A DNA stretch of 64,000 nt. Origin: Candidatus Micrarchaeota archaeon. GTDB taxonomy: Archaea; Micrarchaeota; Micrarchaeia; Micrarchaeales; CABMGC01. The first letter of the stretch is position 1. The number at the start of each line of letters is the position of its first letter. The position numbers were made by a program, and so were the translations under genes. The stretch is from positions 27,020 through 91,019 of the forward strand of contig CAZCSE010000001.1 of the NCBI GenBank assembly GCA_964501245.1, given 5' to 3'. This document shows positions 3,514-63,037 of this stretch, piece by piece. The notes beneath the pieces were generated by a model. The model ran no database searches. It saw only the letters and a program-made list of their open reading frames with translations, and was not told the DNA's origin.

Positions 3514-3608
3514 CTGAAAAGTTGTGTTGCAGGTTATTTGTACTGTTTAGAATATAAAATTATACCCTATTATATTTTATAATAACTGATGTTTTTACAG
3601 GTAATATA

Positions 3609-5243: not shown

Positions 5244-5247
5244 TAAT

Positions 5248-6165: not shown

Positions 6166-6183
6166 TCTGCATTATGTGATATT

Positions 6184-18194: not shown

Positions 18195-18869
18195 TCACAG
18201 CACTATTTCTTCTCCAAACTTCATTGTGCGTGCCTTAAGACCTTCTTTTTCTACCATATCGACAAATTCTTGTGGGTTAATATCCTTGTCTTTCGGAGAA
18301 TCCAAATGAACGGGTATTGTAACTTCTGCCCTTATCTCTTTTGCAAATTTTAATGCATCATTCGCATCCATTGTAACTCCACGGCCAGAGATTGGCAAGA
18401 ATAAGTATTTTGCATGAGTCTCTTTCGGAAGAGATGCCGGATCTATATAGAGAGTATCGCTTGTGTAATAGAAACTTGATCCGTCTGCAGAAACAACTAA
18501 TCCAAAATTAGGTATAACCTCTCCATTTACTCTGTGATCTGCAGGTATTGCTGTGAATGAAAATCCTGAGGCTTCAACTTTCAATCCCATTTCTAGAATT
18601 TTCGCTTCGATGTTTTCGCTTCTTAATGTTTCTTGTAGTTCTTTGTTTGTGAATATAGTTGGTGAGCTGCACTTAAGTAAAGATCGTATGATGCTGATAT
18701 CGAAGTGATCAATATGCTTATGTGTTATGATTATTGTTTGTGCTGTTGGAATAGTATCAACTGTAAGTCTTCCCGGATCAAGATTATATCTACCAGGATC
18801 TATTAACAGCGTGCCACCTTTTTCATTAGTTACTAACATAGTAGATTGGGCTAGCTTTTTCAACTGCAT
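18195..18869 (-). CDS. metallo-beta-lactamase-fold hydrolase
   Basis: 224 aa. THKHIDHFD (HxHxDH) motif. Last gene of the cysDN-containing operon. Confidence 0.75.
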   Translation of the reverse strand: MQLKKLAQSTMLVTNEKGGTLLIDPGRYNLDPGRLTVDTIPTAQTIIITHKHIDHFDISIIRSLLKCSSPTIFTNKELQETLRSENIEAKILEMGLKVEASGFSFTAIPADHRVNGEVIPNFGLVVSADGSSFYYTSDTLYIDPASLPKETHAKYLFLPISGRGVTMDANDALKFAKEIRAEVTIPVHLDSPKDKDINPQEFVDMVEKEGLKARTMKFGEEIVL

Positions 18870-29699: not shown

Positions 29700-30296
29700 T
29701 TATGATATTTTTATCCCTAGCTTTTTCATATTCTCCTTCATGCCATAAAGACTGTCAAATAATATGGTATTAATTCCAAGCTCTCTTGCTACTGAAAGGT
29801 TTTCATCAGTATCTTCTATGAAGAGCATCTCATTATATTCAAATCCTGTTTTTTCCTTTACAAACTCGTATACGCGTTTATCAGGTTTCCTATAATGTAT
29901 TCTGGACGAAGGGAATTCAAAGTCAAAAAAGTTGTTTCCAAGTTGTGAGACCACATACATATACCTATTTTCCTCATTGTTTGTTAAACTGGCCAACTTG
30001 TAGTTCCTTTTAAGCGACCGGATAAACTCCACATTTTGATCGTATATCTTTAGATTTTCTTTGTAATACTCTAGGAACCTGATTTGACTAATATCTAAAC
30101 CAAGTCCTTCTGCAATTAATCTTTCAGCTTCTTGAAGACTTATTGCAGATATTGAGAGCTTTATCGTAATCGGTTTTACAACACTTACTACTTCATCTTT
30201 GTCCTTCCCGGAAACCTTGCAAAGATAATCGATATACCCCCCACTTGTGTTGTTGTTTATTATTCCACCCATATCAAAAAGTATTAGTTTTATCAT
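29700..30296 (-). CDS. HAD-superfamily hydrolase
   Basis: 198 aa. Motif I LILFDMGGII (DxG variant), SLTNN, FIEDTDENL. Confidence 0.7.
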   Translation of the reverse strand: MIKLILFDMGGIINNNTSGGYIDYLCKVSGKDKDEVVSVVKPITIKLSISAISLQEAERLIAEGLGLDISQIRFLEYYKENLKIYDQNVEFIRSLKRNYKLASLTNNEENRYMYVVSQLGNNFFDFEFPSSRIHYRKPDKRVYEFVKEKTGFEYNEMLFIEDTDENLSVARELGINTILFDSLYGMKENMKKLGIKIS

Positions 30297-32638: not shown

Positions 32639-32725
32639 TGAATTTACCTATAATTATTTTATACAGGCATAACTTTATCCGGATTTATTATGTGTATATG
32701 TACCAATATATTCTTTGTGACTGCA

Positions 32726-33304
32726 ATGACTGAAGAAAGCGAGATTGATAGAAGCATCTCTGAAACTATAAGACTATGGAATCAGTCTAAGAGAGAAATT
32801 TTTAGATTGCAGTTACTTAATACTTATTGGGAGGATACAAAAACAGATGCCTTTAAAGAATTCATGAAAGGAAAGCTGATAGACCCTATGGAAAATCCAG
32901 GATTTAAGGATTTTGTTGATGATATAGCTAAAAAAAGGGCTGACGGAGTCAATATAGTAAATATGCAGGTATTAGATTTGCCAATTAGTGATGCTCTGAG
33001 GTTTGGTATAGGCTTCTTGAGAGTTTCAGAAAAAAATGGGCAGAGAAGCTTATTTGTAGAAAGAAAGGACGTTACAGACCTGGTAAAAGGATTTAAGGAT
33101 TTCTATATTTTTGACTCGGAGATAGTGATGAACATTATTTATGATAAAAATTTGGAAGGCAGGTATCTCGGCTCGGAAAAAATCATTACTGATCCAAAAG
33201 AGGTTACTAGATATACCAATCTTAGAGATAAGTTAATTGAGAAAGCTTTTCCTATGGAAGATTTCTTGAAAGAGCATCATATTGATATTTTTAGTAACAG
33301 CTAG
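32726..33304 (+). CDS. hypothetical protein, possibly DUF6879-like
   Basis: Start moved to the ATG at 32726 (MTEESE). The overall pattern (F.L.. ..Y.......F..F..G ... V..L.DLP..D...F....... DFYIFD ... DP..V..Y) recalls DUF6879. Memory-based and weak. Confidence 0.35.
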   Translation: MTEESEIDRSISETIRLWNQSKREIFRLQLLNTYWEDTKTDAFKEFMKGKLIDPMENPGFKDFVDDIAKKRADGVNIVNMQVLDLPISDALRFGIGFLRVSEKNGQRSLFVERKDVTDLVKGFKDFYIFDSEIVMNIIYDKNLEGRYLGSEKIITDPKEVTRYTNLRDKLIEKAFPMEDFLKEHHIDIFSNS

Positions 33305-34299: not shown

Positions 34300-35286
34300 A
34301 TGCTTATGGAGAAGATAATAGAAGTTAAGGATGTGATGAAGAGGTTCCGTACCCACGAACACAGGAAGAGCGACAGCTTTTTGGCAAAGCTGATACGCAA
34401 GAGCTATAACAAAACAGCTCTTGACGGCCTGAGCTTCTCTGTGAATGAGGGAGAGATAGTGGCGCTTCTGGGAAGGAACGGGAGCGGGAAGTCCACGCTG
34501 ATAAAGACAATGACGGGGATACTTCACGCGGACAGCGGAAGCGTCAGGGTTGTTGGGATGGACCCGTGGGAGAACAGGATAGCGATAGCTTCGCAGATAG
34601 GGATAGTGCTGGGTGCGCACGGGCAGCTGTACTGGAACCTGCCTGCAATAGACACCTTTGACTTCATACGCTCCGTATACAGGATACCTGAGAAAGAGTA
34701 CAGGAAGCGTCTTGGTGAGCTGCTGGAGATGCTGGACCTGAAGAAGGTTTATAGAAGGCCGGTAAGGACGCTCTCTCTTGGAGAGCAGATGAAGTGCAAC
34801 TTTGTCTCCTCTGTACTGCATAAGCCAAAGATAGTCTTCCTGGATGAGCCCACAATAGGAGTGGACCTGCCTTCAAAGACTGCTCTGCGGTCCATGATCC
34901 TGAATATGCGGAAGAAGTACAATACAACCTTCATAATAACAACGCATCTGGTAGAAGACATAACAATGGCAGAGAGGGTAATACTGATAAACAAGGGCAG
35001 GATGATATTTGACGGGCCGAGGAGTAAGCTTGAGCACCTCTTTGGAGACAGGCGCATGATAGACCTTGAATTTAGTAATACGGCTGGAATGAGGTTCAGC
35101 GGCTATGGGAAGGTCATTGAACATACTGATAACTTCGTCAAGCTTGAGGTAAACAAGAAGGTACTGAAGAGCACCAGCTTCATGCGCATGCTCTCAAGCG
35201 ATAATGTAATAGACTATAAAGTATATGAGCCGGGGCTGAATTTCGTTCTTTCAAAGCTGTACAGGAAGATTGACGGGAAGAGGTGA
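34300..35286 (+). CDS. ABC transporter ATP-binding protein
   Basis: 328 aa. Walker A GRNGSGKST, signature LSLGEQMK, Walker B IVFLDEPT. ~100-aa C-terminal extension. The antisense ORFs are rejected. Confidence 0.85.
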   Translation: MLMEKIIEVKDVMKRFRTHEHRKSDSFLAKLIRKSYNKTALDGLSFSVNEGEIVALLGRNGSGKSTLIKTMTGILHADSGSVRVVGMDPWENRIAIASQIGIVLGAHGQLYWNLPAIDTFDFIRSVYRIPEKEYRKRLGELLEMLDLKKVYRRPVRTLSLGEQMKCNFVSSVLHKPKIVFLDEPTIGVDLPSKTALRSMILNMRKKYNTTFIITTHLVEDITMAERVILINKGRMIFDGPRSKLEHLFGDRRMIDLEFSNTAGMRFSGYGKVIEHTDNFVKLEVNKKVLKSTSFMRMLSSDNVIDYKVYEPGLNFVLSKLYRKIDGKR

Positions 35287-35290
35287 AGGT

Positions 35291-36097
35291 ATGGTACACA
35301 GGTATCTTGATCCGTACATAGGTGCGTTCGTGGTAGAACTTAAGGATAGTTTCTACTATAGAGCGAACTTTCTTGCCAGTATGCTCTTTAATGGAGGCTA
35401 TGCCCTGGTTATGATTTTCGTCTGGACTGCAATCTTTGCAAATTCTAGTCAGACCCAGATATCTGGTTTCACTCAGCTAGACATATACGCGTATTTCTTT
35501 GTTTTTACTGCTTTCTTTGCCCTGTCCGAAACCAACATAAACTACATAATACAGAGCAGTGTAATGGATGGCACAATAGTCATAAGCAGGGTCAGGCCGA
35601 TATCTTATATTGCACAGGTTATACTGCAGGCTCTTAGCCGCACAGTAATGCTTGCCGTTACTTTCGTCCTACCTCTCTTTTTGGTAGGCATCCTTATAGG
35701 CCATATACCAGTAACGGCATATGGGCTTGGCATTGCTATAGGGGTTTTCCTGATTGGATTTACGTTATTCTCATTAATCAGCTTCCTAGTAGGAACAATT
35801 GCAATCATCATAACAAATGTCCGTGGGATTATGCAGATAGTAACATCGCTTATAGTGATTGCAGCAGGAGGCGCAATACCACTGATTATGCTTCCGCCAT
35901 ATCTTGCAAACATAGCTTTCGCCCTGCCATTCCAGACAATGGGTTATCTCCCTACAGCTGCAATTATGGGGATAGCAACCCCCTCTGCAATAGCAAATGG
36001 GATTATTATCGGATGTATATGGATAGTTGCACTTTTTATCATCTCATTCTTTTGGTGGGGGAGAGTGAGTAAGAAAATTACATCAGTAGGTGGTTAA
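35291..36097 (+). CDS. ABC-2-type transporter permease
   Basis: The ATG at 35291 lies just after the ATPase stop. About 6 TM helices. Paired with a second, similar permease. Confidence 0.65.
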   Translation: MVHRYLDPYIGAFVVELKDSFYYRANFLASMLFNGGYALVMIFVWTAIFANSSQTQISGFTQLDIYAYFFVFTAFFALSETNINYIIQSSVMDGTIVISRVRPISYIAQVILQALSRTVMLAVTFVLPLFLVGILIGHIPVTAYGLGIAIGVFLIGFTLFSLISFLVGTIAIIITNVRGIMQIVTSLIVIAAGGAIPLIMLPPYLANIAFALPFQTMGYLPTAAIMGIATPSAIANGIIIGCIWIVALFIISFFWWGRVSKKITSVGG

Positions 36098-36886
36098 ATG
36101 AATAGACTTTCTGCAAACCTTAGATTCTTGATAGATCTTCAGAAGATTAACTGGAAGAGCTTTCTTACGTATAGGTTACAGGCAGCTGTGTGGATGCTGG
36201 GAGAGGCAGTAACAATCCTGTATAGTATAGTAGCAATAACCGTAGTCTATACGATCTCAAATGGGATATTCGGATGGTCCTATTTTCAGGTTCTTGCACT
36301 GGCAGGTATAACAAATATGATATTCAGTTTGTCTGCATACATGATAGTGCCACATGAGATCATAAGTAGACTAAGGGACGGTAAGATAGATATGTGGTTT
36401 ACCAAGCCGTACAGTTATCTTATGATACTCTCAGGTGCATTCGGTTCACCTACCGCACTGGCAGGATTTGTATCTGGACTTGGCTTATTAGTATACTCTG
36501 TAATACAGCTTCATGTACAGGCCATTAAGCTCCTCTATTTCATACCTACTTTTATCGCAGGCACTGCAGCATTTATCATGTTTATTCTTATGATTACAGT
36601 TGTTTCATATATTCTGTTTAAGAGCGGAGATTTTATAGATGATATGAAGAACATGTTAGGAGGATTAGGCCAGTATCCGCTGAGCGTCTATGGCATCTTA
36701 GGCCAGCTGATATTCACTATTTTAATACCGATAGGAATAGCTTATTATTATCCGGCAGAGGTACTATTCGGTTTCGTAGGAATAGAAGGTACCATAGCTG
36801 AGTTACTGCTTTCGATAGTGATAATTTTAGTATCAAGGAAGATAATTTATGAGGTTCTCAAGGGTTACAGCAGCGGAGGAGGCTAG
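36098..36886 (+). CDS. ABC-2-type transporter permease
   Basis: 262 aa with about 6 TM helices. The start abuts the previous stop. Confidence 0.65.
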   Translation: MNRLSANLRFLIDLQKINWKSFLTYRLQAAVWMLGEAVTILYSIVAITVVYTISNGIFGWSYFQVLALAGITNMIFSLSAYMIVPHEIISRLRDGKIDMWFTKPYSYLMILSGAFGSPTALAGFVSGLGLLVYSVIQLHVQAIKLLYFIPTFIAGTAAFIMFILMITVVSYILFKSGDFIDDMKNMLGGLGQYPLSVYGILGQLIFTILIPIGIAYYYPAEVLFGFVGIEGTIAELLLSIVIILVSRKIIYEVLKGYSSGGG

Positions 36887-37016: not shown

Positions 37017-37571
37017 TTGGCAGGAGATGATGATATACCTATACCTAATAGGATTGTGGCGGAGCTATTGAATTACAAAAAATCCGGTACGGTGCTGGAC
37101 CTGGGCGTAGGCTGGGGACGCGATGCCCTTTTCTTTGCATCGTCTGGATTTGATGTCTCTGGAGTAGACATCGATAGTAAGGCAATAGAGTTATTCAGGA
37201 AAAAAGCAGCTGATGCAGGGATAAATGTAAGGGCAGAGCTGGCAGACGTGCAGAAATACAACATTGCTGCAGAATATGACGTGATTGTCTCCGTATCTAC
37301 TCTGCACTTTACAACAGATCCAGGAAAGATAATCCAGGATATGAAAACGCATACCAAAAAACTGGGCTTTAACGTAATAAGCGTTTTTACAAAGGAGAAT
37401 CCTGACAAAGGGTTTGCGCATTTGTTTGGACAGGATGAGTTAAGGCATTATTATGATGATTGGGAGATATTGCATTACAATGAATATCTTACCGATCTGG
37501 AAGAGCACGATAACCTTAAGCCGCACAGGCATTTCATTGCTGAGATAATAGCGCGCAAGGGCGCTGTTTGA
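37017..37571 (+). CDS. TehB-like class I SAM-dependent methyltransferase
   Basis: 184 aa. VLDLGVGWGRDALFFASSGFDVSGVDID. TTG start. Confidence 0.7.
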   Translation: MAGDDDIPIPNRIVAELLNYKKSGTVLDLGVGWGRDALFFASSGFDVSGVDIDSKAIELFRKKAADAGINVRAELADVQKYNIAAEYDVIVSVSTLHFTTDPGKIIQDMKTHTKKLGFNVISVFTKENPDKGFAHLFGQDELRHYYDDWEILHYNEYLTDLEEHDNLKPHRHFIAEIIARKGAV

Positions 37572-37592
37572 CACAGGTATTCTGCATGGCAG

Positions 37593-37997
37593 CTATCTTA
37601 TCTCAGTTATGGAGACGCCCATCTCCGTTTTCAGGATGCGGAAGTGCTTTGTGTCCTTAGTCAGTACAGAGGCTTCTTTTGCCAGCGCCTGGGCCGCTAT
37701 CAGTATATCAAAATCATCGACTTTCTTGCCTTTTGAGATGAGCTTTGCAGAGATCCTTGAAGCCAGTATGGAATCTGCATAAGTAAAGTCTGAAACCGCT
37801 ATCTTATCAAAAAACTTCAGTACTTTTGGGTACGATGAGTTCATGCCTTTTTCCACCATGTATCGCTCCCCAGTCAGCACTTCGTAGGCGCATATCGAAC
37901 TCGTATATGCCTCTTCTGCAGCTTTTATTGCATCTGACACGTCCTTGTTGCTCTTGAAGAGTTCAATAATTGCGGATGAATCAAGGAATATCTTCAT
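37593..37997 (-). CDS. vapC: PIN-domain ribonuclease toxin
   Basis: 134 aa. IFLDSSAIIELF, AYEVL, DFDILIAAQA, TKDTKHF. Confidence 0.75.
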   Translation of the reverse strand: MKIFLDSSAIIELFKSNKDVSDAIKAAEEAYTSSICAYEVLTGERYMVEKGMNSSYPKVLKFFDKIAVSDFTYADSILASRISAKLISKGKKVDDFDILIAAQALAKEASVLTKDTKHFRILKTEMGVSITEIR

Positions 37998-38224
37998 GCC
38001 CTCATCCTTGCGTTCTTTCTTAACCTTTTAATGACCCTTTCAACAGCCTCGGCTTCTTCGCTCGGCATTATGCCTGCGAACTGCAGCAAATCACCGGTGC
38101 TGGTCTGCTTTGCGTTGTCTGAAAGCTCTATCAGAAGCTCTGTAAAGCTCTTTTTACCCTTTCTTGAAGCTAATTTTTGATATGCCTCATCACTTATCAT
38201 TATGGTCTTCATAAGCTCATCCAT
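37994..38224 (-). CDS. vapB: VapB-like antitoxin
   Basis: 76 aa. TIMISDEAYQKLASRKGKKSFTELLIELS. 4-nt overlap with vapC. Confidence 0.6.
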   Translation of the reverse strand: MDELMKTIMISDEAYQKLASRKGKKSFTELLIELSDNAKQTSTGDLLQFAGIMPSEEAEAVERVIKRLRKNARMRA

Positions 38225-38226
38225 TA

Positions 38227-38248
38227 ACTATATACAGACTATATACAG
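38227..38248. promoter_or_regulatory. tandem 11-bp direct repeat ACTATATACAG x2 immediately upstream of vapB (putative operator)
   Basis: Read directly from the sequence. Begins 3 nt upstream of the vapB start codon. Confidence 0.3.
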
Positions 38249-38389
38249 ATTATACATATTTAAGTTTTGCGGCAGGTTGCATAGAAACAGGCATAAAGAT
38301 ACCCTATACACTGCTGAAGGTTTACAGCAGCAGAGGCTAGAATTATATCATTTGCCTGCCAGATTATACGGGTGGAAGAGGTTATCTGA

Positions 38390-38911
38390 ATGGATAAGAT
38401 AGAAGCTGATAATGTGGAAATGGTAGATGTAGTAGACAAGAGTAACAGAGTGATAGGGGAGACTCCTAGGAAAGGAGTGCACAAAACAGACAAGCTCCAT
38501 AGGGCCGTACATATATTCATGCTTGATTCCAATGGAAGGTTATGGATAGAGAGAAGGGGCCAGAGCGTAGATACACATCCTGGCTTTTATGACTCGTCTG
38601 CTGCAGGCCATGTCAGCAATGGTGAGAGTTATGATGATGCAGCGTACAGGGAAGCGGTAGAAGAGCTTGGAATAGAAGGCCTCGATCTGAAGCCCTCTTA
38701 TGATCTTCCTTTAGGGCCTGATACCAAGAATGAGTTTGTCAGGTTATATATTACAAGATCTGACAAGAAGCCGCGCTTGCATGAAGATGCAGGATCCCAG
38801 GAGCTTTATAATATTGAGGAAATAGACATGAAGATAAAGAACGGGGAGAAGTTTGTGCCTACCTTCCTGCTTCTCTTTGACTGGTACAAGAGAAATAAAA
38901 GGACAATATAA
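38390..38911 (+). CDS. Nudix hydrolase (Idi-like subfamily pattern)
   Basis: 173 aa. Nudix box GHVSNGESYDDAAYREAVEELGI; upstream HRAVHIFMLDSNGRLWIERR. Confidence 0.75.
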   Translation: MDKIEADNVEMVDVVDKSNRVIGETPRKGVHKTDKLHRAVHIFMLDSNGRLWIERRGQSVDTHPGFYDSSAAGHVSNGESYDDAAYREAVEELGIEGLDLKPSYDLPLGPDTKNEFVRLYITRSDKKPRLHEDAGSQELYNIEEIDMKIKNGEKFVPTFLLLFDWYKRNKRTI

Positions 38912-39116: not shown

Positions 39117-39989
39117 TTATAGAATGTGAGGCAGTACAAGTATAATAATTATCAGGAGGTCTAATGCCAATGTATTGACCTTCGTGTAAAAAGATATCTT
39201 ACGCATGTATTTTGTGTCTTTTGTCCTGCTTATCATAGATAGGATGAGAATTATTGTTACATAAAAGAAAAGGGTTGTTAAAAGTAAGATGTTCAGATAT
39301 CCCAAGACTACAAACAAGATAAGTATGATGTAAGCTATCGTTATCATCGCGTACTGAAAGTTAAGCGCTTTCTTTACTCCCAGTACTAACGGGATTGTTT
39401 TCCTGTGTTCTTCAGCATCGCCCTTCATATCCGAATAGTCTTTTACTATGCTTATGCTGAAATAAAGCAAGGTTATGAATGCAATTACAGGAAGGTATGT
39501 GACCAGGTTAGTTGTATGAGAATTTGCTCCGAAGAAACCCATGAGAAATGATAGGAAGCCATACATTACTGCTATCCATACATAATTCAGTATGAATTTT
39601 TCCTTTACTTTAGCGTACATCGAATATAGTATACCAAACACTACCTCTACTAAAAGAACGATGTAGAAGTAAGGTGCTGGTTTTAACAGAAAGAATGCTA
39701 TCAGGAATGAGCATGCAAGGAATATCGCATATAGTATAAGCAATTCTTCCTTTAGAAGATACTTGTGCAGGTTTGATCTTTTGTCATTTATTTCATCCAG
39801 ATGCCAGTCAGAATAGTGATTTATTACGTTTATGCCTAAATCCCAGCACGCCACTATTATGAGCATAAGTAATATTCCAAGAATTGAAGATGATCCTGCA
39901 GATAGAAATCCTATTATTGAAGGTGGCAGAACTACCAGCAGCGTCTCTGCAAAAAATGCTTCTCTTATTCCTTTTATCTTGTTCCTCAT
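39117..39989 (-). CDS. UbiA-family membrane prenyltransferase
   Basis: 290 aa with about 8-9 TM helices. First Asp-rich motif NHYSDWHLDEIND (NxxxDxxxD). Second motif KDYSDMKGDAEEHRKTIP. 4-nt overlap with the upstream gene. Confidence 0.75.
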   Translation of the reverse strand: MRNKIKGIREAFFAETLLVVLPPSIIGFLSAGSSSILGILLMLIIVACWDLGINVINHYSDWHLDEINDKRSNLHKYLLKEELLILYAIFLACSFLIAFFLLKPAPYFYIVLLVEVVFGILYSMYAKVKEKFILNYVWIAVMYGFLSFLMGFFGANSHTTNLVTYLPVIAFITLLYFSISIVKDYSDMKGDAEEHRKTIPLVLGVKKALNFQYAMITIAYIILILFVVLGYLNILLLTTLFFYVTIILILSMISRTKDTKYMRKISFYTKVNTLALDLLIIIILVLPHIL

Positions 39990-41116
39990 TTAATCTCCAA
40001 TGATATAGACAGATTGAACATGCCTTTTTCTATCTTACTTGATAGGAATTGTGCATTTATATCCCTTCCTGATACTGCACTTATAAATCCTGAAAATGCA
40101 CCTCTCACAAATGGTACCTTTGTAGTTGAAAGTTCTTCTGAGAACCATGGATACCCATTAAACACTACTTCAGATTTTTTATCGTTAATTTTTATTACTT
40201 TCACATTGCCATAGCCGAGGGCAGTCATAAGCCTGCTTAAAAATAAGTATGGATCTTTCAAACCGTTGTAATATTTCCCTAATTCATAGAAATATTTGCG
40301 TGACGATTCAAAGATAATATCTTCTGGTAAGGATTTTTCAAGTTGCAATAATCCGAAGCTCTCGAATGGTATGTAACGGCATTGGTCCTTGTTCAGGAAC
40401 ATTTTACCGGCTTCATAGGTTAGAATCTTTTCATCCATTAATTTTTTTATTGTGGCCCCATCTGTAGGCAGAGTCATAGGTAATTTGTTATTGGCATAAT
40501 ATTGTAAAATATTTAACTTCCCAGTAATATCAGCCTCCATGACTTCTGCAATGTTGTTTGACTTAAGATATTCTGCATCTGAATTTATTAACGAGAATCT
40601 TTCTCCTTGTATGTTTTTTACTGCACATTCGATTTTTTCATTGTTAAGCATGGAGCTGAAGAAACCTGCCCATGCTCCAAGAATCCAATAGCTATATCTA
40701 TCTTTTTTGGATCCTGCTGGTTCTAAAACTTCCAGATTTATTGCAACGACCTTATGATTTGTTTTTTTAATCTTCAACTGTATTTCCTTGGCATATAAAG
40801 TTCCAAAAAAACTAGGCACTAGTGTTTTATAGATTTCTTCTTCTTTGGGGAAGTTGGTAATCTTAGCTACGTAGTACCCGTCTCCTTTACCTGCCTTATA
40901 AATTTCATCGAGCCCAGATTTCCCAAGTCGTTCTTCTACGATATCTTCTAAATTTATAAGGAATCTATCTGGAACCATTATTGTCCTCATGGCAACTTTT
41001 ACTCCTTCTATAGAATAGGAAGCCGTTATCAGATATCCAGGTATGTTTATCTTAAATATGTTTGATAGCAATAGTCTTTTAATAAAAAAATCCTTTACTT
41101 TATCAAATTTAGGCAA
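39986..41116 (-). CDS. hypothetical protein, possibly two V4R-like small-molecule-binding domains
   Basis: 376 aa. Two halves each show the pattern Y..GK..G...A ... G...G....... (ILGAWAGFFSSMLNNEKIECAVKNIQGERFSL; FVRGAFSGFISAVSGRDINAQFLSSKIEKGMFNLSI). Assigned by eye only. Confidence 0.35.
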   Translation of the reverse strand: MPKFDKVKDFFIKRLLLSNIFKINIPGYLITASYSIEGVKVAMRTIMVPDRFLINLEDIVEERLGKSGLDEIYKAGKGDGYYVAKITNFPKEEEIYKTLVPSFFGTLYAKEIQLKIKKTNHKVVAINLEVLEPAGSKKDRYSYWILGAWAGFFSSMLNNEKIECAVKNIQGERFSLINSDAEYLKSNNIAEVMEADITGKLNILQYYANNKLPMTLPTDGATIKKLMDEKILTYEAGKMFLNKDQCRYIPFESFGLLQLEKSLPEDIIFESSRKYFYELGKYYNGLKDPYLFLSRLMTALGYGNVKVIKINDKKSEVVFNGYPWFSEELSTTKVPFVRGAFSGFISAVSGRDINAQFLSSKIEKGMFNLSISLEIK

Positions 41117-41120
41117 TTTA

Positions 41121-41948
41121 TCACTTGTCTATGGAGATACCTTTCTCTGAGAATTCAAAACTTTGTAGTTTAGGGTCTATTTTAGTAGTTCTCATTTTTG
41201 ATATCTTTAGTGTCCTTAGAGTTTCACCACCTGTATCGCTTAGGCCTGTCTCTATAACGCCATCACAAGCGTATTCACTAACACCGTCAAGTGTTATTTT
41301 GCCAGAATTGTCATTAGCAAATGTTACTATGAGATTAGTGGTTTCAAGTTTTCTTAGTTGATCTATGATTATGCTTATCAGCCTTTTCTCCTGATCGCCC
41401 TGATAAACAATTTTATCACTATCCTGCTTAGGAGAGGCTGCAAGAGCACTGCTGTTTGTAGCTATCAGATCTCGTGTAGTAGTAACATTTGATGCTGCGG
41501 CTCCCGCATATGCTGCAGGTACTGTAAACAGATCCATGTTTATTACAAATGTTGGCAGGCTATCGAATACGAGCCTCTTTGCGCCTATTTTTTTAACTGC
41601 GTCTTCTATAGTGTAGAAAAGGTCGAATTTCCTCTTTGTCAGAGGAACATGTATGAAAATTACCTTGCCTTCCTGCTCCAGCTTTTCGAAGTCCATTCCG
41701 AATTGTTTAGCTTGAGTTTTTAAGATGTCTAATGCAGAATCCATATACACATAAACTCCGTTCTCCCCATTCATTGCTCCGTTATAAAGGTACTGCATTG
41801 AAAATATGGATTTGCCGCTTCCCGGAGGACCTGTTATAAGTATTGATGACCTTTTTGGAAATCCCCCTTCTACCAATTCGTCGAATCCTTTTATCCCTGT
41901 TGCTACTCTTTCTACCACTATACCAACCCTGTGAAGCTCTCTGGTCAA
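41121..41948 (-). CDS. KaiC/RadA-like single-domain ATPase
   Basis: 275 aa with TTG start. GIKGFDELVEGGFPKRSSILITGPPGSGKSIFSMQYL (Walker A) and RLVFDSL (Walker B). An Ala/Ser-rich insert lies between them. Confidence 0.75.
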   Translation of the reverse strand: MTRELHRVGIVVERVATGIKGFDELVEGGFPKRSSILITGPPGSGKSIFSMQYLYNGAMNGENGVYVYMDSALDILKTQAKQFGMDFEKLEQEGKVIFIHVPLTKRKFDLFYTIEDAVKKIGAKRLVFDSLPTFVINMDLFTVPAAYAGAAASNVTTTRDLIATNSSALAASPKQDSDKIVYQGDQEKRLISIIIDQLRKLETTNLIVTFANDNSGKITLDGVSEYACDGVIETGLSDTGGETLRTLKISKMRTTKIDPKLQSFEFSEKGISIDK

Positions 41949-42199
41949 GAGCTACATGCCTTACTATTTGATGTGCATTTCCACATATAAATAGCTATCG
42001 CATGTCCGTCGTTAACAATTAGGCAGATTAAAGACAGGTTTATAAATTAGCAACCTGCTCAATCGTTGATTGACGTGGTTATACAAGGATATATTTTGAT
42101 AACAGCATGGTTTTTAAATTTGTGAACAGATTTTGAATTGTGATTAACATGGAGGGAGAAAAAGGAAAAGGAGGTTCTGGAGGTTAGATAAATCTATTT

Positions 42200-43612
42200 T
42201 TAGTCTTGAGGATATACTTCCTTTTTTATTGTTTCTGGAGTATACTTGTAATGTTCTATAAGTATTTCGTATTGTCGTGTTTGTATTTTGTCAAATAACC
42301 TATGATTTGTTGAACCTATAAGAACACCTGTTATTACGAGTGTTTCTATAGTTACTCCGTTTATTAATTTAGATAGCTTATCTCTCTTTATTTCTATTTC
42401 ATCATTACCTATTATTGAAGTTAGTAATAATATACCTCTAGGTGCCATTATATCGCTTCCGAAAGAATACACATCGAATTTCCGTTTGTCTTCTTTTATT
42501 ATTTCAAGTAATAGATTTTTTCTACTGGGAGCCCATTTATCAAAATTCACATGATTTATTATAAACAATACATCTGATTTTGATTTTGCATCTGAAATAG
42601 AAATAGTAGACCTTTTAATTATCCCTCTTTTAGTTAACTGATGATATGCGTAGTTAGATCTGCCAGTGTCTGCTCCTATCTCTTTGTCTATAGATGTAAA
42701 ATCAGCTGCAGCGTTGTTATTCATTGCTTTTAGCACATTATACTCCATCTCTGTTATCTCATCATGCGCAGGTCTTGGTTTTTCCTTTGTTCTTGTCCAG
42801 ATCTTCTCTTTGAGTACTTCGAAGAATTGTTTACGAAGCGGGATGAAGCCGAAAGTGTATTGAAATGCAGGAGTTACTGTCCATTCAAGATCATAAGAGG
42901 TAAGGAAATGTTCCATAATCTCATATATGGTTATTCTAGCATCATTCGTACTCTTCACTACTAAGAATATGACTATATCATATGTTCCTTTTGTTGTCAT
43001 GGCTACCTGGACATATGGAATCGCTTCCAGCTGCGTCTTCATCTCCTCGTATGTCGGTCTTTTGTCCTTGAACTTGACAAAGGCAATGTAGTTTATGTAT
43101 CCGAACTTCTCTATGTCCAATTCAAGTATGTACTTTATGTCATACTTCCTTTCAAGATTCCTAAGATGATAGTTAACTGCAGTGTTGCTGAGTCCTGTTA
43201 TCTTCGCAAGTTCAGGAACTGTTATTCTTGCATTCATCGAGAGCGCCCTTAGAATGTCGCGTTCATGTTTCTCCGTATTCTTCTTCCTTATACTCTCTTC
43301 GTAATTCTTCTTCTCCGCTTCCTTCAGTGATTCCTCCAATTCCTTTATCTTCTTCTCAGTATCCTCTTCAAGTTTGTTGAAGATCTTTGTCTTTAGGTCA
43401 TTATGCCTTGCAGGTATCAGCTGGCCTTCCTCTGTGAGCCATCCCAAGTATCTTGTAACCTTCTTCGGCTTCTTCTTCTCAGGATCGTAGATGCTTGTTG
43501 CCTCAAAGAGCCTGTACTTCCCATGCATAAATTTTGCCTGGACGTAATGGCCATACCCCTTCCTTATTGTCTGTACTGCCCTTTCTATATTCTCAGGAAG
43601 CCTTTTTGGCAC
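42200..43612 (-). CDS. transcriptional regulator with two tandem Lrp/AsnC-like (HTH + RAM) modules and an N-terminal extension
   Basis: 470 aa. HTH1 ERDILRALSMNARITVPELAKITGLSNTAVNYHLRNLE followed by a RAM-like beta-alpha-beta region. Second module: EYNVLKAMNNNAAADFTSIDKEIG...YAYHQLTKRGII plus a RAM-like region. Confidence 0.55.
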   Translation of the reverse strand: MPKRLPENIERAVQTIRKGYGHYVQAKFMHGKYRLFEATSIYDPEKKKPKKVTRYLGWLTEEGQLIPARHNDLKTKIFNKLEEDTEKKIKELEESLKEAEKKNYEESIRKKNTEKHERDILRALSMNARITVPELAKITGLSNTAVNYHLRNLERKYDIKYILELDIEKFGYINYIAFVKFKDKRPTYEEMKTQLEAIPYVQVAMTTKGTYDIVIFLVVKSTNDARITIYEIMEHFLTSYDLEWTVTPAFQYTFGFIPLRKQFFEVLKEKIWTRTKEKPRPAHDEITEMEYNVLKAMNNNAAADFTSIDKEIGADTGRSNYAYHQLTKRGIIKRSTISISDAKSKSDVLFIINHVNFDKWAPSRKNLLLEIIKEDKRKFDVYSFGSDIMAPRGILLLTSIIGNDEIEIKRDKLSKLINGVTIETLVITGVLIGSTNHRLFDKIQTRQYEILIEHYKYTPETIKKEVYPQD

Positions 43613-43976: not shown

Positions 43977-44234
43977 ATGGCAAAGAAAATAGCGAAGCTT
44001 CACAGATTGTTCTTTGTGAGGCCAAAGGAGAATACGAACGCAGATGAGCTTGCGGAGAGATTTGCAGGCTTTGAGAGTGTAGATGAGGTACTGCTTACCG
44101 AAGGGGACTATGGCTTCATAGTAAGGGCAAGGATCGGATCCTTAGAGGAGCAGAAGGAGCTTGCAAAGTCCATATCCGAAGTTTCTTCTGGAAGCTGTGG
44201 AACTGCAGTTAGTTATTACAGGTATAGGAAATAG
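43977..44234 (+). CDS. stand-alone RAM (Lrp/AsnC ligand-binding) domain protein
   Basis: 85 aa. LFFVRPKE...FESVDEVLLTEGDYGFIVRARIGS fits the RAM beta-alpha-beta-beta-alpha-beta pattern. No HTH. Confidence 0.5.
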   Translation: MAKKIAKLHRLFFVRPKENTNADELAERFAGFESVDEVLLTEGDYGFIVRARIGSLEEQKELAKSISEVSSGSCGTAVSYYRYRK

Positions 44235-45271: not shown

Positions 45272-46174
45272 TTGAATTCTGGCGTTAAGAGAAATAGGAC
45301 AAAACAAAATTGGGACTGTACAACAATTTATACGTTTGGAAATAAGAGATTGGTTTTGATAGGGTGCTCGCATAAAGACGGTCACAGTAAAGATTTTATT
45401 AAGTTTATAAAAGATGTGATCGGAGGTACAGAGCCTGCTTTGGCCATGATAGAATATGACAATGAGCATATTTATGAGATATCAAAAAATTGCAAGCATT
45501 TTCCTAAAAGTCTTTTTTCTGAGAAGTAACTCGTTTTTTCCTTAGCACGTGAATTCGGTTATAAAATATATGGCATGGATATTGAAAGATCCAAGAATAT
45601 CGGTGTGTTTACTGATAAGTATATAGAAGGCAGTAAAGAGCTGGCACTTTTTGCATGGTTTTTGATATTAACACAGCAAGAATACAGGAAACGGAGTAAA
45701 AATAAAAGGTATAGAGGGATAAGCAGATACGAAGCGTATCGTAGCATGTTTTTATCAGATATCCTTTCAGATGGTTGGCTCTCTGTATTAGGAGCATGGT
45801 TGAAGGAGATGTGCGCTGCAAGAAAACAGGGTAGTGTTGAGGAATGCCTTGATGATATAATATTCAGAATGTACGGAGAGAATGTTAAAAGTGGCGTTGA
45901 ATTAAGCAAGGTAATGAGTACTGTTGTCAGGGTCAATCTTCTTGGAATAAATATGCCGCCAAAATATAAAATTGGAGAGAAGTTTCTGTACTGGAATGCA
46001 TTCAGGGAAGCAAATATGATAAACGTATGTGTTTCGCAACTTAAAAAGCATGATTCAGTGATTGTTATTTCTGGGAATGTCCATGTTATTCGTGCGAGAG
46101 AAGCTCTGCATAAGGAATTAAAAGAGAATTTTGGCAATGTAAGGATGTCTTACTGGAAAGATATGAGAATCTAG
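45272..46174 (+). pseudogene. TraB/GumN-like gene interrupted by one in-frame TAA (45527..45529)
   Basis: ORFs 45272..45529 and 45575..46174 are in the same frame, and I translate no other stop between them (…SEK*LVFSLAREFGYKIYGMD…). LVLIGCSHKDGHSKDF…PALAMIEYD and VIVISGNVHVIRA resemble TraB-family N- and C-terminal motifs. Confidence 0.45.
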
Positions 46175-46342
46175 GTATGAGGGTTTGCATTAACAAGGAG
46201 ATCAGGTATTGAATATGAATGGATTCTGGAGGTTTGCATGAGCTACTATGTAATAATAAGAGGGCCGCAGAGGAGTGGAAGAGCGCAGTAAGCAAAATCC
46301 TGGTCAAAAAGATTAATAATCAGTTAACGCTTAGGGATATTT

Positions 46343-46891
46343 ATGGCCAGCAAAAGGCTTTCTGAGAAGAAGGTTTACAGAAAAGAGGAGTATGTAAAGG
46401 CCGTTGACCTGGTAAATGGCAGACGGATAGATAAGCAGTTCAGGAGGGTTGATGGACCTTACACTGTAACAGTGCTGCCGCTGCTCAAGGATGATACTAT
46501 CCTGCTGGTAAGGCAGTACAGGCCTGCTATGCGCAACACCGGTTTCAGCAGGAGCGGATTCATATATGAACTGCCAGGAGGGCATGTTGAGAAGGGGGAG
46601 AGCCCTGCCAAGGCAGCCCGCAGGGAGACTGAAGAGGAGATAGGATATACTGCAAAGAGCATGAAGTTTCTTTATACAAGAGTGATTACACCGTGGTCTT
46701 CTGACGGAGGTGACAGCATGTTCGTTGCAAAGGGCCTTGTCAAAAGCAGGAAGAGACTTGATGAGGATGAGCTGATGGAGACCGTTCCGTTCAAGGCAGA
46801 TGAGATAAAGAGAATGCTTAAGGATGGGAAGATATTTGACCTTTCTACAAGGGATGGGCTGCTCTACTGGCTCATGTTTTTGAGGAATTAG
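46343..46891 (+). CDS. Nudix hydrolase (ADP-ribose pyrophosphatase-like)
   Basis: 182 aa. Nudix box GGHVEKGESPAKAARRETEEEIGY. Antisense ORF 46331..46903 rejected. Confidence 0.8.
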   Translation: MASKRLSEKKVYRKEEYVKAVDLVNGRRIDKQFRRVDGPYTVTVLPLLKDDTILLVRQYRPAMRNTGFSRSGFIYELPGGHVEKGESPAKAARRETEEEIGYTAKSMKFLYTRVITPWSSDGGDSMFVAKGLVKSRKRLDEDELMETVPFKADEIKRMLKDGKIFDLSTRDGLLYWLMFLRN

Positions 46892-47061
46892 GCAAAATAG
46901 CATTTTTGTATATTTATGATGGTTCGGATCGAAGGTTGGGTTGTTACCATAAAGAGATTAGATAAAAGGGTGTTAAGATTAAGGATAGTAAAGTAGAGAT
47001 AAGGAATTTCTATAATGAGAGCATAACGAAGGAGGAGCAGTCTGAATTAGTAAAGAGGATA

Positions 47062-50576: not shown

Positions 50577-53090
50577 ATGGACAAGAGCGAGGATTACAGG
50601 CTGGGGAGGAGAGTCGTACCTGAATTGTATAAGCTTAGCATAGACGCAGACATGAAGAGTTTCCTGTTCTCTGGAAACGAGTCGATATATGCAAAGGTTA
50701 CTGAGAGCAGCGACAGGATAGTGATGAATTCGTATATGCTGAAGATAAAGGAGGCATATGTGATAAGCAGGAATTCGAGGATAGATGCAAAGCCTATAAC
50801 TGACGATAAGAAGCAGAGGCTGACCCTTTTGCTGGACAGGAAGGTAATAGGGAAGGTGGAGATATGCATAAGGTTCGATGGTAAGGCAGGGGAGAAGATG
50901 GCAGGGCTGTACAGGAGCAGCTACAAGGAGAATGGAAAGACGGTAAACATACTGACTACGCAGTTCGAGGCGCTTTATGCAAGGCAGGCATTCCCATGCT
51001 TTGACGAGCCTGAGCTAAAAGCCGCATTTGAACTTACGCTAAGCGCAGACAAGGATTACAACCTTGTCTCCAACATGCCTGCTAAGAGTACAGCCGTAAA
51101 GAAGGGCAGGAAGTGCTCGGTCTTCATGAGAACGCCGATAATGTCGACGTATCTGCTCTACATTGGAGTGCTCAAGCATGTATCTATGAGCGGAAAGTAC
51201 AGGAATATTACAGTGAGCTCGCACGCCACTCCTGCACACAAGGAGTACCTTGAGCTGCCCATGGAGTATACGATAAAACTGCTTGCATTTTATGAGAAGT
51301 ATTTTGGGATAAGGTATCCGCTTCCGAAGCTTGATGTCATAGCCGTGCCGGATTTCTCGGCATCGGCAATGGAGAACTGGGGGGCGATAACCTTCAGGGA
51401 GCACACTCTCCTTGTAAAGGATGACAGCCCGATGCCTGACAAGCAGTATACTGCTATGGTGATAGCACACGAGCTTGCCCACCAGTGGTTCGGCGACCTT
51501 GTGACAATGAGATGGTGGAACGACATATGGCTGAATGAGAGCTTTGCAGAGTTCATGGCATACAAGGCTACCTCTGAGGTCTTCCCAGAGTTCAACATGG
51601 ACAAGGAGTTCCTGATAGATACTGTAAACGTAGGGCTTGACTCTGATGGCATAAAGAGCACTCATCCTGTGGAAGCAGAGGTGAGGGATCCGACGGATAT
51701 GGACAGGGCGTTTGATAATATAAGCTATAGGAAGGGAGGGAGCATCCTTGGGATGGTAGAGGAGTATACGGGCAAGGAGAAGTTCAGGAAGGGGCTGCAG
51801 AGGTATCTGAGGAAGCACATGTATTCAAATTCTGTAAGGGATGACTTGTGGAATGCGATAGACTCTGTTGCAGGAAGAAAGCTGCAGGTGAAGAGGGTTG
51901 CAAACGCGTGGATAACGCAGAAAGGCTATCCTTATGTAAAGGTAGGCAGCGACTTCAGCATGGAGCAGTCAAGGTTCATACTGGGCATGCTTAAAAACAA
52001 GGACAAGACCATATGGCCGATACCGATAATATACGCTACAGGATCTGGGAAGAGCCTGATGACGCTGTTCGACAGAAAAAGAGGAAGGATAAAGGGGACG
52101 AGCGGCTGGATAAAGCTAAACTACGGGCAGAGAGGATTGTACAGGGTCTTCTATGAAAAGGGTGAGCTGATGAAGCTCGGCACTCTTGTAAAAGAGGGAA
52201 GGCTGGGCTGGGCTGACGGATGGGGCATGGCGAATGACCTCTTTGCACTTGCAAGGGCAGGGGACATAAGGGTCGATGATTACCTGAACTTTGCAGACTT
52301 ATTCAGGGACAGATGCGAATATCCTATGGCGAACTCTATGATGGCAGATATGCTCTTCATGCATGATATGCTTCCGGAAGGGCATGCACTCCGCAAGAGG
52401 ATAGAGAGCATATGCATAGATTACGCTAAATACCATATACGAAAGCTTGGATGGAGGTCAAAGAGAGATGAGAGCAGCATAGATGCGATCATGAGGAGCG
52501 CTTCAATAAGCGTTGCAGGATATGCTGGTGACAGAGAGACGATAGAAAAAGCTACAAAGCTCTTCTCTGATTTCCAGAAAAAGGGGATTGAGATAGACCC
52601 TGGGATAAGGAGCAGCGTGTTAGGCATAGCTGCAAGGAATGGATCGGCAAAGCTCTATGAGTGGTTCAAGAGAAGCTACATTAGAGAGAGGGATCCTGCG
52701 GTTAAGAGCGAGTACATGGACTGCTTAGGCATCTTCAAGGACAAGAAGATTATCATGGATGCGTTAGCTTTCAGCATGAGTGAGAATGTAAGGGACCAGG
52801 ACAGGTATATGATATCACGTTATGTTTCTGAGAGCCAGATTGGAAAAACGCTGATATGGGACTGGACGAAGAAGAACTGGAGGAGCATTATCAAAAGATT
52901 CGAGGTAGGAGACCATATGGTAAGGAAGTATGTTGAAAACCTCAGAGTGGTGTCTGATGCTGCTACAATGAAGGAGATGAAAGCATTCTTTGCAAAGAAA
53001 GATAATTTCAGGAAGGATACAGTACCGGTACTGAATGATACTCTAGAAAGGATCGAAGCGAACATAAAGTTCCTTAAAGCGAATAAGTAG
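50577..53090 (+). CDS. M1-family aminopeptidase (aminopeptidase N / tricorn-interacting-factor F2/F3-like)
   Basis: 837 aa. GAMENWG exopeptidase motif, HELAHQWFGD zinc motif, WLNESFA. Confidence 0.9.
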   Translation: MDKSEDYRLGRRVVPELYKLSIDADMKSFLFSGNESIYAKVTESSDRIVMNSYMLKIKEAYVISRNSRIDAKPITDDKKQRLTLLLDRKVIGKVEICIRFDGKAGEKMAGLYRSSYKENGKTVNILTTQFEALYARQAFPCFDEPELKAAFELTLSADKDYNLVSNMPAKSTAVKKGRKCSVFMRTPIMSTYLLYIGVLKHVSMSGKYRNITVSSHATPAHKEYLELPMEYTIKLLAFYEKYFGIRYPLPKLDVIAVPDFSASAMENWGAITFREHTLLVKDDSPMPDKQYTAMVIAHELAHQWFGDLVTMRWWNDIWLNESFAEFMAYKATSEVFPEFNMDKEFLIDTVNVGLDSDGIKSTHPVEAEVRDPTDMDRAFDNISYRKGGSILGMVEEYTGKEKFRKGLQRYLRKHMYSNSVRDDLWNAIDSVAGRKLQVKRVANAWITQKGYPYVKVGSDFSMEQSRFILGMLKNKDKTIWPIPIIYATGSGKSLMTLFDRKRGRIKGTSGWIKLNYGQRGLYRVFYEKGELMKLGTLVKEGRLGWADGWGMANDLFALARAGDIRVDDYLNFADLFRDRCEYPMANSMMADMLFMHDMLPEGHALRKRIESICIDYAKYHIRKLGWRSKRDESSIDAIMRSASISVAGYAGDRETIEKATKLFSDFQKKGIEIDPGIRSSVLGIAARNGSAKLYEWFKRSYIRERDPAVKSEYMDCLGIFKDKKIIMDALAFSMSENVRDQDRYMISRYVSESQIGKTLIWDWTKKNWRSIIKRFEVGDHMVRKYVENLRVVSDAATMKEMKAFFAKKDNFRKDTVPVLNDTLERIEANIKFLKANK

Positions 53091-62069: not shown

Positions 62070-62218
62070 GATAATCGTAAGATTCTGTTATGGCTATATA
62101 GAGAAACCTAACTAATAAATAGTTTATCTATCTTCCTTTCTTGTTTTGGCCTGCTTGAATGTGACAGCAACATTTTAATATCTTGACAGCGCCACTTAGC
62201 ATTATTAAAGGTGCATAC

Positions 62219-63037
62219 ATGTCTATTAGTAAGGTTGGAATTGTATTTAGCATTGCTGTTCTTGCAATGATTGGGTTGTCATTCGTAGTCCATGCGAGTG
62301 GTATAGGCGGAGCTACCAGCACCACCAGCACGACAAGCATAACATCAACTTCATCAACATCTACAAGCATATCCACATCAGTAAGCACAACAGTTCCGAC
62401 AAGCACATCTACATCTACAAGCACTTCTACTTCAACTTCCACTAGCACTTCTACTTCAACTTCCACTAGCACTTCTACTTCAACTTCCACATCGACTTCG
62501 TCAACGTCTTCCAGTACATCTACTTCGACAAGCACATCCACGTCTAGCTCAACATCATCAACTTCTTCCAGTACGTCTACATCAACATCTCTTTCAACCA
62601 CTGCACCAACAACTACAATTCAGCAGTGCAACATAACTGAGAATGATACTCAGAACTATGGATACAGATGGGGCTGGAGTTATTGGGGATGGGGCAACTG
62701 GAACTACAATAACTGGAATACAAGCCCTTCAAACTCAACGTGGTCTGGAAACTGGACAGGTAATTCAACAGGAAATTATTCCGAGTATATTAGTATGTTT
62801 AGAGGAACATGGGGAGGTAATTTTGTATTTGCACCATTGAATACCTGGATGTGGTACAACCATATGAATAATAACCATGGTATGAATCACCACCATGATG
62901 ATTGTGATGACAACGCAGATTCACATGGTGACTATGAAGCGAGCACTCACAGCCAGCATTGGAAAGGAACAGGAGGCAACGGAGACGACAATAACAATGG
63001 TAACAGCGGTTGCTGCGGAGGAAACAACTCTGATTGA
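62219..63037 (+). CDS. exported protein with (Thr/Ser)n repeat stalk, Trp/Asn/Gly-rich region and His/Asp/Cys-rich tail
   Basis: The ATG at 62219 (MSISKVGIVFSIAVLAMIGLSFVVHASG signal/anchor) is preferred over the TTG at 62183. ~110-aa ST repeat. Seven N-x-S/T sequons. The tail reads HHHDDCDDNADSHGD…GNSGCCGGNNSD. Confidence 0.55.
   Translation: MSISKVGIVFSIAVLAMIGLSFVVHASGIGGATSTTSTTSITSTSSTSTSISTSVSTTVPTSTSTSTSTSTSTSTSTSTSTSTSTSTSTSTSTSSTSSSTSTSTSTSTSSSTSSTSSSTSTSTSLSTTAPTTTIQQCNITENDTQNYGYRWGWSYWGWGNWNYNNWNTSPSNSTWSGNWTGNSTGNYSEYISMFRGTWGGNFVFAPLNTWMWYNHMNNNHGMNHHHDDCDDNADSHGDYEASTHSQHWKGTGGNGDDNNNGNSGCCGGNNSD
62420..62491 (+). repeat. three tandem copies of a 24-bp unit (agcacttctacttcaacttccact) inside the ST-repeat coding region
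   Basis: Read directly from the sequence. Copies 1 and 2 are identical and copy 3 differs at its last base. Confidence 0.8.

Follow-up and report, generated by a model that had tools for sequence, protein, structure and literature searches.

Which function could join a KaiC-like ATPase, an unannotated soluble protein and a membrane prenyltransferase in one archaeal gene cluster? The question is raised by three adjacent minus-strand genes in a stretch of 64,000 nt from Candidatus Micrarchaeota archaeon (GCA_964501245.1, contig CAZCSE010000001.1, positions 27,020-91,019, forward strand), which is referred to as the window. The genes encode a single-domain KaiC-like ATPase (KaiC), a middle protein with two predicted V4R-type domains (X) and a prenyltransferase of the UbiA superfamily (UbiA). 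When these genes were compared with related loci from other genomes (designated by L-numbers, L001 etc.), a conserved three-gene arrangement was observed. We read it as a conserved module that assists or regulates an archaeal lipid prenyltransferase, with a probability of about 55 % and with a mechanism that we infer.

Conserved linkage of the KaiC, X and UbiA genes

We recovered the genes surrounding X at about 26 loci or in lineages that encode it, and these loci carry archaeal marker genes. A degenerate DNA pattern (E-x5-CQGRGD-xx-C) returned 120 stretches, mostly chance matches, and 15 of them truly encode X. The KaiC gene adjoins X in 19 of the approximately 26 loci and the UbiA gene in 15, and most of the exceptions are contigs of 1-3 kb that end beside X.

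Several gene orders were observed, and assemblies with the module include GCA_021817305.1, GCA_027318225.1, GCA_027355215.1 and GCA_013425335.1. The order KaiC-X-UbiA is found in the window clade (L001-L011) as well as in L015 (about 26 % identity), L068 and L113, and the order KaiC-UbiA-X in L021, L030 and L050. A KaiC-X pair with a convergent UbiA is present in L020 and L085, a UbiA-X pair with a convergent KaiC in L099, and a UbiA-X pair with KaiC beyond X on the opposite strand in L089. In L012, L093, L128 and L142, X and UbiA are adjacent and KaiC was not seen; the pair in L142 is accompanied by a convergent gene of the geranylgeranyl reductase (GGR) family.

Amino acid identities to the window KaiC, X and UbiA, respectively, are 83, 72 and 81 % in L007, 48, 65 and 69 % in L004, 47, 47 and 45 % in L001, and 38, about 26 and 31 % in L015. 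Adjacency of the trio persists down to approximately 20 % identity despite altered gene order and orientation. As the linkage survives rearrangement and the three proteins diverge in parallel, we regard the trio as a functional unit. A tie between a KaiC-like ATPase and a prenyltransferase, which the sequence-only reading had pointed out for this locus, is thus conserved in many loci and is broader than a single window could show. In a limited literature search, with the 2017 paper on KaiC proteins outside it, no published KaiC-UbiA or KaiC-V4R-UbiA association was found.

The same counts raise an alternative, in which KaiC and X are a generic signalling pair for a hydrophobic small molecule with its output elsewhere (for example in a helix-turn-helix (HTH) protein), and UbiA is a housekeeping digeranylgeranylglyceryl phosphate (DGGGP) synthase carried along as a passenger. 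Adjacency to KaiC is indeed commoner than adjacency to UbiA. Homologues of a 470-aa HTH protein of the window recur upstream in L019 and L015. L004 has an island of the kind expected in signalling neighbourhoods, in which further KaiC paralogues occur with a FIST protein and three single V4R proteins, and PMC5847659 cites the proposal that KaiC-like ATPases are archaeal signalling hubs. However, UbiA stays beside X through at least four orders or orientations and at about 20 % identity, which is unexpected for a passenger, X-UbiA pairs without an adjacent KaiC exist in L012, L142, L093 and L128, and X, UbiA and KaiC co-diverge. We therefore consider the signalling pair unlikely.

The three superfamilies were already known, as was the proposal of KaiC-like ATPases as archaeal signalling hubs. 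What is new is an unannotated tandem-V4R family and its conserved tie to KaiC and a DGGGP-synthase-like enzyme in a lipid-gene context.

The three proteins of the module

The window X protein has no match in Pfam (E ≤ 0.1) or NCBIfam, and a sequence-profile comparison with the PDB gave nothing meaningful, the sole entry being a proteasome subunit with an E-value of 1.4. A word-indexed search found 10 close relatives, from 'Candidatus Micrarchaeota' metagenome-assembled genomes; searches of this type with X and UbiA yielded 9-15 close relatives overall. When an exhaustive profile search was applied to 1.84 billion cluster representatives (E ≤ 1e-3), the family comprised 189 clusters at 50 % identity, nearly all of 360-385 aa and with full-length matches. 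X is considered a real, unannotated family because of this number of clusters, their near-uniform length and the full-length matches.

An AlphaFold model of X (AF2, alignment of 112 family members) reached a pLDDT of 93.5 and a pTM of 0.92. It consists of an N-terminal helix and two domains (residues ~25-185 and 225-376), in each of which the same pattern is predicted: strand-strand, three helices, strand-strand, helix, strand-strand. Hydropathy analysis found no hydrophobic segments, as in a soluble protein. The closest PDB structures found by Foldseek were the phenol-sensor domains of MopR, PoxR and DmpR (XylR_N+V4R), with E-values from 5e-5 and TM scores (target) of 0.53-0.57, followed by H-NOX, Bet3/TRAPPC3 (one entry palmitate-bound), BcsD/CesD and YslB; these matches are given for the whole chain, without a statement of which half matched. 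The V4R protein MJ1460 (2oso) was matched using a first, weaker model.

Profile comparisons using hhalign related the two halves of the family to each other (87 % probability; E-value 3.9e-6). When compared with the three V4R proteins of L004, the N-terminal half gave 95.9 % (E-value 6.5e-9, 148 columns) and the C-terminal half, the weaker of the two, 85.1 % (E-value 6.2e-6, 139 columns). Pfam V4R (PF02830) matches were present in 27 of the 112 family members; the ten inspected singly were all below 31 bits, the gathering threshold, and were located where the N-terminal half ends. Podar et al. (2008, PMC2253512) gave a pair of GxxxG glycine doublets, one in helix 2 and one in helix 5, as a common signature of V4R and Bet3 proteins. 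Both are found in the N-terminal half of X (G76xxxG80 and G147xxxG151), and the C-terminal half contains G339xxxG343 only, the helix-2 doublet not being evident there.

The predicted fold and these remote similarities support X as two tandem V4R/H-NOX/Bet3-fold domains. The impression of a double V4R protein, first gained by eye, is thus borne out for both halves by fold and profile homology, although the formal Pfam threshold was not reached.

Main-clade members of the family carry a Cys...Glu...Cys...Cys cluster (CQGRGDxxC) in the N-terminal domain at the V4R position, and C139, C173 and C181 (P0029 numbering) occur in 80-85 of 93 of these members. In the window clade the three cysteines are replaced by S/A/L, V/I/R and F, respectively, and the Glu alone is retained; a sister clade also lacks the three cysteines. 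Compared with known V4R proteins (MJ1460, MopR/PoxR/DmpR and BchJ) and their relative Bet3/TRAPPC3, X shares the fold, profile homology and GxxxG doublets, and in the main clade the cysteine cluster as well. In contrast to them, it fuses two domains in one chain of about 375 aa, which would form a pseudo-dimer, it has no attached DNA-binding or AAA+ output domain, it has no threshold Pfam match, and its window clade lacks the Cys triad.

In the case of UbiA, the Pfam match to PF01040 (88.4 bits against a threshold of 34.2; E-value 6e-25) and both Asp-rich motifs (N57xxxD61xxxD65 and D184xxD187xxxD191, invariant among nine relatives) agree with the family assignment made from the sequence alone. 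Hydropathy analysis indicated about 8-9 hydrophobic segments. Nine close homologues were found by the word-indexed search, and the window contains a single UbiA. The best NCBIfam models, PRK12884 and PRK12882, belong to the archaeal prenyltransferase and DGGGP synthase models, but all scores were far below the equivalog cut-offs: 77.2 against 269 for PRK12884, 60.4 against 296 for PRK12882 and 48.1 against 353 for PRK12883.

When UbiA profiles were compared with the PDB, the DGGGP synthase of M. jannaschii (6m31) was the first match of both sub-clades. For the window clade its E-value was 5.8e-10, with chlorophyll synthase (ChlG) second (2.8e-6), and for the main clade 3.9e-8, with AfUbiA (4tq3) next. 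The two sub-clades are homologous (hhalign 98.9 %), and the best NCBIfam model of the main-clade proteins is PRK13591, an uncharacterised 'prenyltransferase'. The module UbiA thus most resembles a divergent DGGGP-synthase-like branch, judging from these profile matches. It shares with the M. jannaschii enzyme the two Asp-rich motifs and the hydrophobic segments, and its relatives, unlike the window gene itself, adjoin genes of CDP-archaeol synthase (CarS), the GGR family and geranylgeranyl diphosphate synthase (GGPPS)-like proteins, but it lies far under every curated cut-off for that enzyme. A place in the housekeeping DGGGP-synthase clade had earlier been coupled with the lack of any conserved linkage to KaiC-like genes; the two come apart here, as UbiA is DGGGP-synthase-like and yet the linkage is conserved.

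The KaiC protein was identified by PF06745 (175.9 bits against a gathering threshold of 26.6; E-value 1.1e-51) and contains the Walker A motif GPPGSGKS at residues 40-47, both in keeping with its first description. The Walker B motif (LVFD129-S130) is unchanged in an alignment of 12 module KaiCs. Its best PDB matches are KaiC chains, and the protein is a single domain, as one and the same region of the query is aligned with either half of cyanobacterial KaiC. No hydrophobic segments were found by hydropathy analysis. The catalytic Glu pair (FEE) is changed to YMDS in the window, with Asp at the first Glu position and the second Glu absent. Asp-Ser replaces the Glu pair throughout the window/L015 clade, while L020 and L021 keep FEE, and L014 and L018 have (L/F)EQ. 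The alignment also revealed a clade-specific insertion of about 50 aa after Walker B (residues ~135-190 of the window protein). A circadian KaiC was considered and rejected, as the 275-aa single domain lacks the CI-CII duplication and scores 120.9 against a cut-off of 408 for NF006799.

Archaeal KaiC-like ATPases, of which ArlH, GvpD-type proteins, PH0186 and SSO2452 are examples, were reportedly proposed as signal transduction hubs by Makarova, Galperin and Koonin in 2017. The module KaiC resembles such hubs in being a single-domain RecA-superfamily ATPase with Walker A and B motifs, in the adjacency of its gene to that of a predicted small-molecule sensor domain protein, and in the expansion of KaiC paralogues in a related genome (L004). 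It differs from them in its partners, an unannotated tandem-V4R protein and, as the third conserved member, a membrane lipid prenyltransferase, and in the Asp-Ser replacement and insertion of about 50 aa in the window clade.

Lipid genes around the module and its possible function

To describe the surroundings of X, Pfam families were counted for 60 genes within 5 kb of X at 14 loci. The commonest neighbours belonged to polyprenyl synthase (3), GGR-type FAD_binding_3 (3), GHMP kinase (2), undecaprenyl diphosphate (UPP) synthase (1) and CarS (1). The L015 module adjoins a CarS gene (170 bits against an equivalog cut-off of 148) and a GGR-family gene just under the subfamily cut-off (134 against 159 bits). 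The GGR-family gene of L142 is above the cut-off, that of L068 lies immediately downstream and just below it, and that of L012 lies immediately upstream. An IdsA/GGPPS-like gene is next to the L030 module, a GGPPS-like gene is near the L020 module, and in L004, a member of the window clade, the module is directly preceded by a mevalonate-kinase-like gene of the opposite strand. This enrichment of isoprenoid-lipid genes is in line with a regulated module for lipid prenylation, which had been advanced from the sequence of the locus. According to a recent survey (PMC12892359), all major Micrarchaeota lineages have geranylgeranylglyceryl phosphate (GGGP) synthase, DGGGP synthase and CDP-diglyceride synthetase, so lipid synthesis is plausible in Micrarchaeota.

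Further neighbours were observed at single loci. In two main-clade loci, L017 (1511-1801) and L035 (11504-12118), a hexapeptide-repeat acetyltransferase is found directly downstream of X instead of UbiA; one of the two is very weakly similar to heptaprenylglyceryl-phosphate O-acetyltransferase, with 31 bits where the cut-off is 300. In L001 (9990-11222) and L004 (10272-11498) the module is followed by a convergent class I/II aminotransferase gene (PF00155), which is absent from the window; the upstream contexts of L001 and L004 differ. Upstream of the L004 module (443-7030; GCA_027355215.1) are two more KaiC paralogues, a FIST protein, three single-domain V4R proteins and the mevalonate-kinase-like gene. 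This island resembles a signalling neighbourhood of KaiC and V4R proteins that borders on isoprenoid metabolism.

The nature of the acceptor leads to a second alternative, in which UbiA is a specialised paralogue for another acceptor (a quinone-like ring, a pigment, a glycerol derivative or a polyprenyl-phosphate carrier) and X is a substrate carrier or chaperone comparable to BchJ. All module UbiAs score far below the DGGGP synthase equivalog cut-offs, with PRK13591 as the best model of the main clade, and chlorophyll synthase is the second-best solved relative. KaiC-X is also found without UbiA, with a cis-prenyltransferase at one locus and the hexapeptide acetyltransferase at two. In Rhodobacter, bchJ presumably stands beside bchG, a gene of the UbiA family, and close to bchP, which belongs to the GGR family; this would be a striking parallel in bacteria. 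BchJ, a V4R protein, has been suggested as a chaperone of the bacteriochlorophyll pathway, without experimental verification (PMC7242693); this proposed role is a relevant analogy for X. On the other hand, the recurrent neighbours are core archaeal lipid genes (CarS, GGR family, GGPPS-like and mevalonate-kinase-like), no quinone-ring or tetrapyrrole genes were seen near the modules, and DGGGP synthase is the top solved relative of both UbiA sub-clades. A specialised paralogue of this kind seems quite unlikely to us.

Under the preferred reading, an accessory or regulatory module for a lipid prenyltransferase, UbiA would probably be the enzyme that attaches the second geranylgeranyl chain in ether-lipid synthesis, or a close paralogue of that enzyme. 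Because the ligands of characterised proteins with this fold are hydrophobic, judging from PDB titles (MopR/PoxR with phenols, H-NOX with haem and Bet3 with palmitate), X may bind an isoprenoid or lipid intermediate, such as geranylgeranyl diphosphate, GGGP or DGGGP/archaeol. X and the KaiC-like ATPase might jointly form a nucleotide-dependent switch or hand-off device, and this device could set the activity or the substrate supply of the prenyltransferase at the membrane.

Several points weigh against this reading. The ligand, the physical complex and the direction of control are ones that we infer. As its sequence scores far below every NCBIfam DGGGP synthase cut-off (77 against 269 bits at best), the UbiA may be a paralogue that prenylates another acceptor. 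The window clade has lost the Cys triad, the putative metal site of V4R sensors, from X and carries Asp instead of the catalytic Glu in KaiC, and the window version of the module may be partly degenerate or function in another way. In the window itself the module has genes of a NUDIX hydrolase, VapBC, a methyltransferase, an ABC transporter and an HTH protein as neighbours, and further lipid genes are absent from its vicinity. In addition, no UbiA is present beside X in L016 and L014, both of which have adequate context; in L014, KaiC-X is followed by a 178-aa open reading frame (ORF) and then by a UPP synthase gene in place of UbiA.

A more specific version can be offered tentatively: KaiC and X could be a dedicated and widespread archaeal sensor or carrier of isoprenoid intermediates, which gates the DGGGP-synthase step in a nucleotide-dependent manner.

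Gene anatomy, base composition and biological meaning

The three genes lie on the minus strand with the 4-nt gap and the ATGA overlap described in the sequence-only reading, all read directly from the sequence (Table 1), and are probably co-transcribed with translational coupling. Both KaiC and X start with TTG and UbiA with ATG. The start of X is supported because orthologues keep the N-terminus MP(K/T)FDKVKDFF (MPKFDKVKDFF in the window); the start of KaiC is plausible and less certain than that of X. The TATA-box-like element upstream of KaiC is a candidate promoter of the three-gene operon. No RNA genes were found in the window by Rfam and tRNA scans.

Table 1 Coordinates of the module, its sequence signals and the upstream HTH gene in the window
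Feature	Coordinates	Strand	Description
KaiC-like ATPase, single-domain	41121-41948	-	275 aa
X, soluble tandem V4R/H-NOX/Bet3-fold protein (predicted)	39986-41116	-	376 aa
UbiA-superfamily membrane prenyltransferase	39117-39989	-	290 aa
ATGA stop/start overlap of the X and UbiA genes	39986-39989	-	direct sequence reading; X stop TGA and UbiA start ATG share ATGA at 39989-39986
Shine-Dalgarno-like GGAG	39998-39995	-	5 nt upstream of the UbiA ATG
4-nt spacer taaa between KaiC stop and X start	41117-41120	-	direct sequence reading; KaiC stop TGA at 41123-41121, X start TTG at 41116
TATA-box-like TTTATAT	41985-41991	-	within an intergenic stretch of 251 bp, about 40 nt ahead of the KaiC start
470-aa protein with two winged-helix domains and an Lrp/AsnC-like domain	42200-43612	-	HTH_24 E-value 3e-12; AsnC_trans_reg sub-threshold

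The gene of the 470-aa HTH protein lies upstream of the module on the same strand and inside the same low-GC block. Homologues are encoded directly upstream of X in L019 (1-777; E-value 1e-19) and upstream of KaiC in L015 (2-316, a partial ORF; E-value 6e-5), and none is present upstream of the module in L001 and L004. The protein might be a dedicated regulator in part of the X family, as these two loci faintly suggest.

The module and the HTH gene form an AT-rich block, for which horizontal acquisition had been proposed from hand-counted GC values of three 60-nt samples (about 33-37 % in the block, at 40021-40080 and 42421-42480, and about 47 % in the suf/aminopeptidase region, at 51001-51060). 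These values were exact on recomputation (0.367, 0.333 and 0.467). The GC content of positions 39117-43612 is 36.3 % against a window mean of 42.5 %, and this is the lowest 4.5 kb of the window; 1.8 % of the sliding windows are as low. The deviation of the individual genes is moderate, with z-scores between -0.8 and -2.3 for GC and between -1.1 and -2.0 for GC at third codon positions (GC3).

A recently acquired horizontal island with an accessory prenylation module would account for this lowest-GC block and for the low GC3 of all four genes, and the window also has an extra methyltransferase/VapBC/NUDIX segment compared with L007. However, other single genes of the window (6-1016, 8247-9104, 18195-18869, 29700-30296 and 32690-33304) are equally AT-rich (GC 0.335-0.375; GC3 down to 0.28), so low GC is patchy across this genome segment. 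The GC contents of orthologous or homologous modules and their flanks were 0.48 and 0.54 in L001, 0.31 and 0.39 in L004, 0.35 and 0.435 in L007, 0.43 and 0.49 in L015, and 0.41 and 0.52 in L012; the module thus lies 6-10 points under its flanks in five genomes of 39-54 % GC and follows the host genome. Moreover, L007, the closest relative, is syntenic with the window, its module identities of 72-83 % fall inside the range of the flanks (49-92 %), and the module co-diverges across the clade. As the deficit recurs in each genome and L007 is syntenic, we regard low GC as an inherited, intrinsic property of the module that carries no mark of recent transfer. The compositional anomaly is therefore real, whereas its explanation by horizontal acquisition is not supported, and a recent island is very improbable.

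The extra segment (37017-38911) lies between the module and an ABC-2 transporter and encodes a TehB-like methyltransferase, a VapB-VapC (PIN) pair and a NUDIX hydrolase. In L007 the module directly abuts the ABC transporter (window 34300-36886) and the segment is missing, so that it was either inserted in the lineage of the window or deleted from L007.

We also observed other genes in and around the window locus. A small stand-alone protein like the Lrp/AsnC ligand-binding (RAM) domain is encoded near the module (43977-44234, plus strand); a homologue occurs near L004-type modules (L004 11754-12026; E-value 1e-12), and a 75-aa AsnC_trans_reg protein is encoded near the KaiC-X pair of L014 (3497-3724). 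Two ORFs of about 190-200 aa (45575-46174, plus strand, and 46331-46903, minus strand) have no Pfam match at E ≤ 0.001, the first with a GC content in the lower range (0.37). The gene at 62183-63037 (plus strand) has a very unusual codon-position composition (GC1 0.27 and GC2 0.64). Its product has an N-terminus resembling a signal or anchor, followed by an extended (ST)n repeat and a C-terminus rich in W/N/G/H, has no Pfam match, and is, from these sequence features, probably a heavily glycosylated surface protein. Four ORFs of the window match the GDP_Man_Dehyd and Epimerase families (nucleotide-sugar epimerase/dehydratase), which suggests that surface-glycan biosynthesis genes are present.

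To our knowledge, the control of archaeal ether-lipid membrane synthesis is essentially uncharted, and the KaiC-X-UbiA module is a concrete candidate for it. With X, an unannotated family has been defined and given a predicted fold, and the V4R/Bet3 fold gains a lipid-synthesis context outside eukaryotes. This context bears on the idea that Bet3, a component of the eukaryotic TRAPP complex, descends from V4R proteins. The loss of the Cys triad and the catalytic Glu in the Micrarchaeota-type version may inform how lipid synthesis is retained or simplified in reduced genomes. If KaiC and X do gate the DGGGP-synthase step, a post-translational regulator or chaperone would have been identified for the first time in the synthesis of core membrane lipids in archaea, and the V4R/Bet3 fold would have an ancient functional tie to membrane biogenesis.

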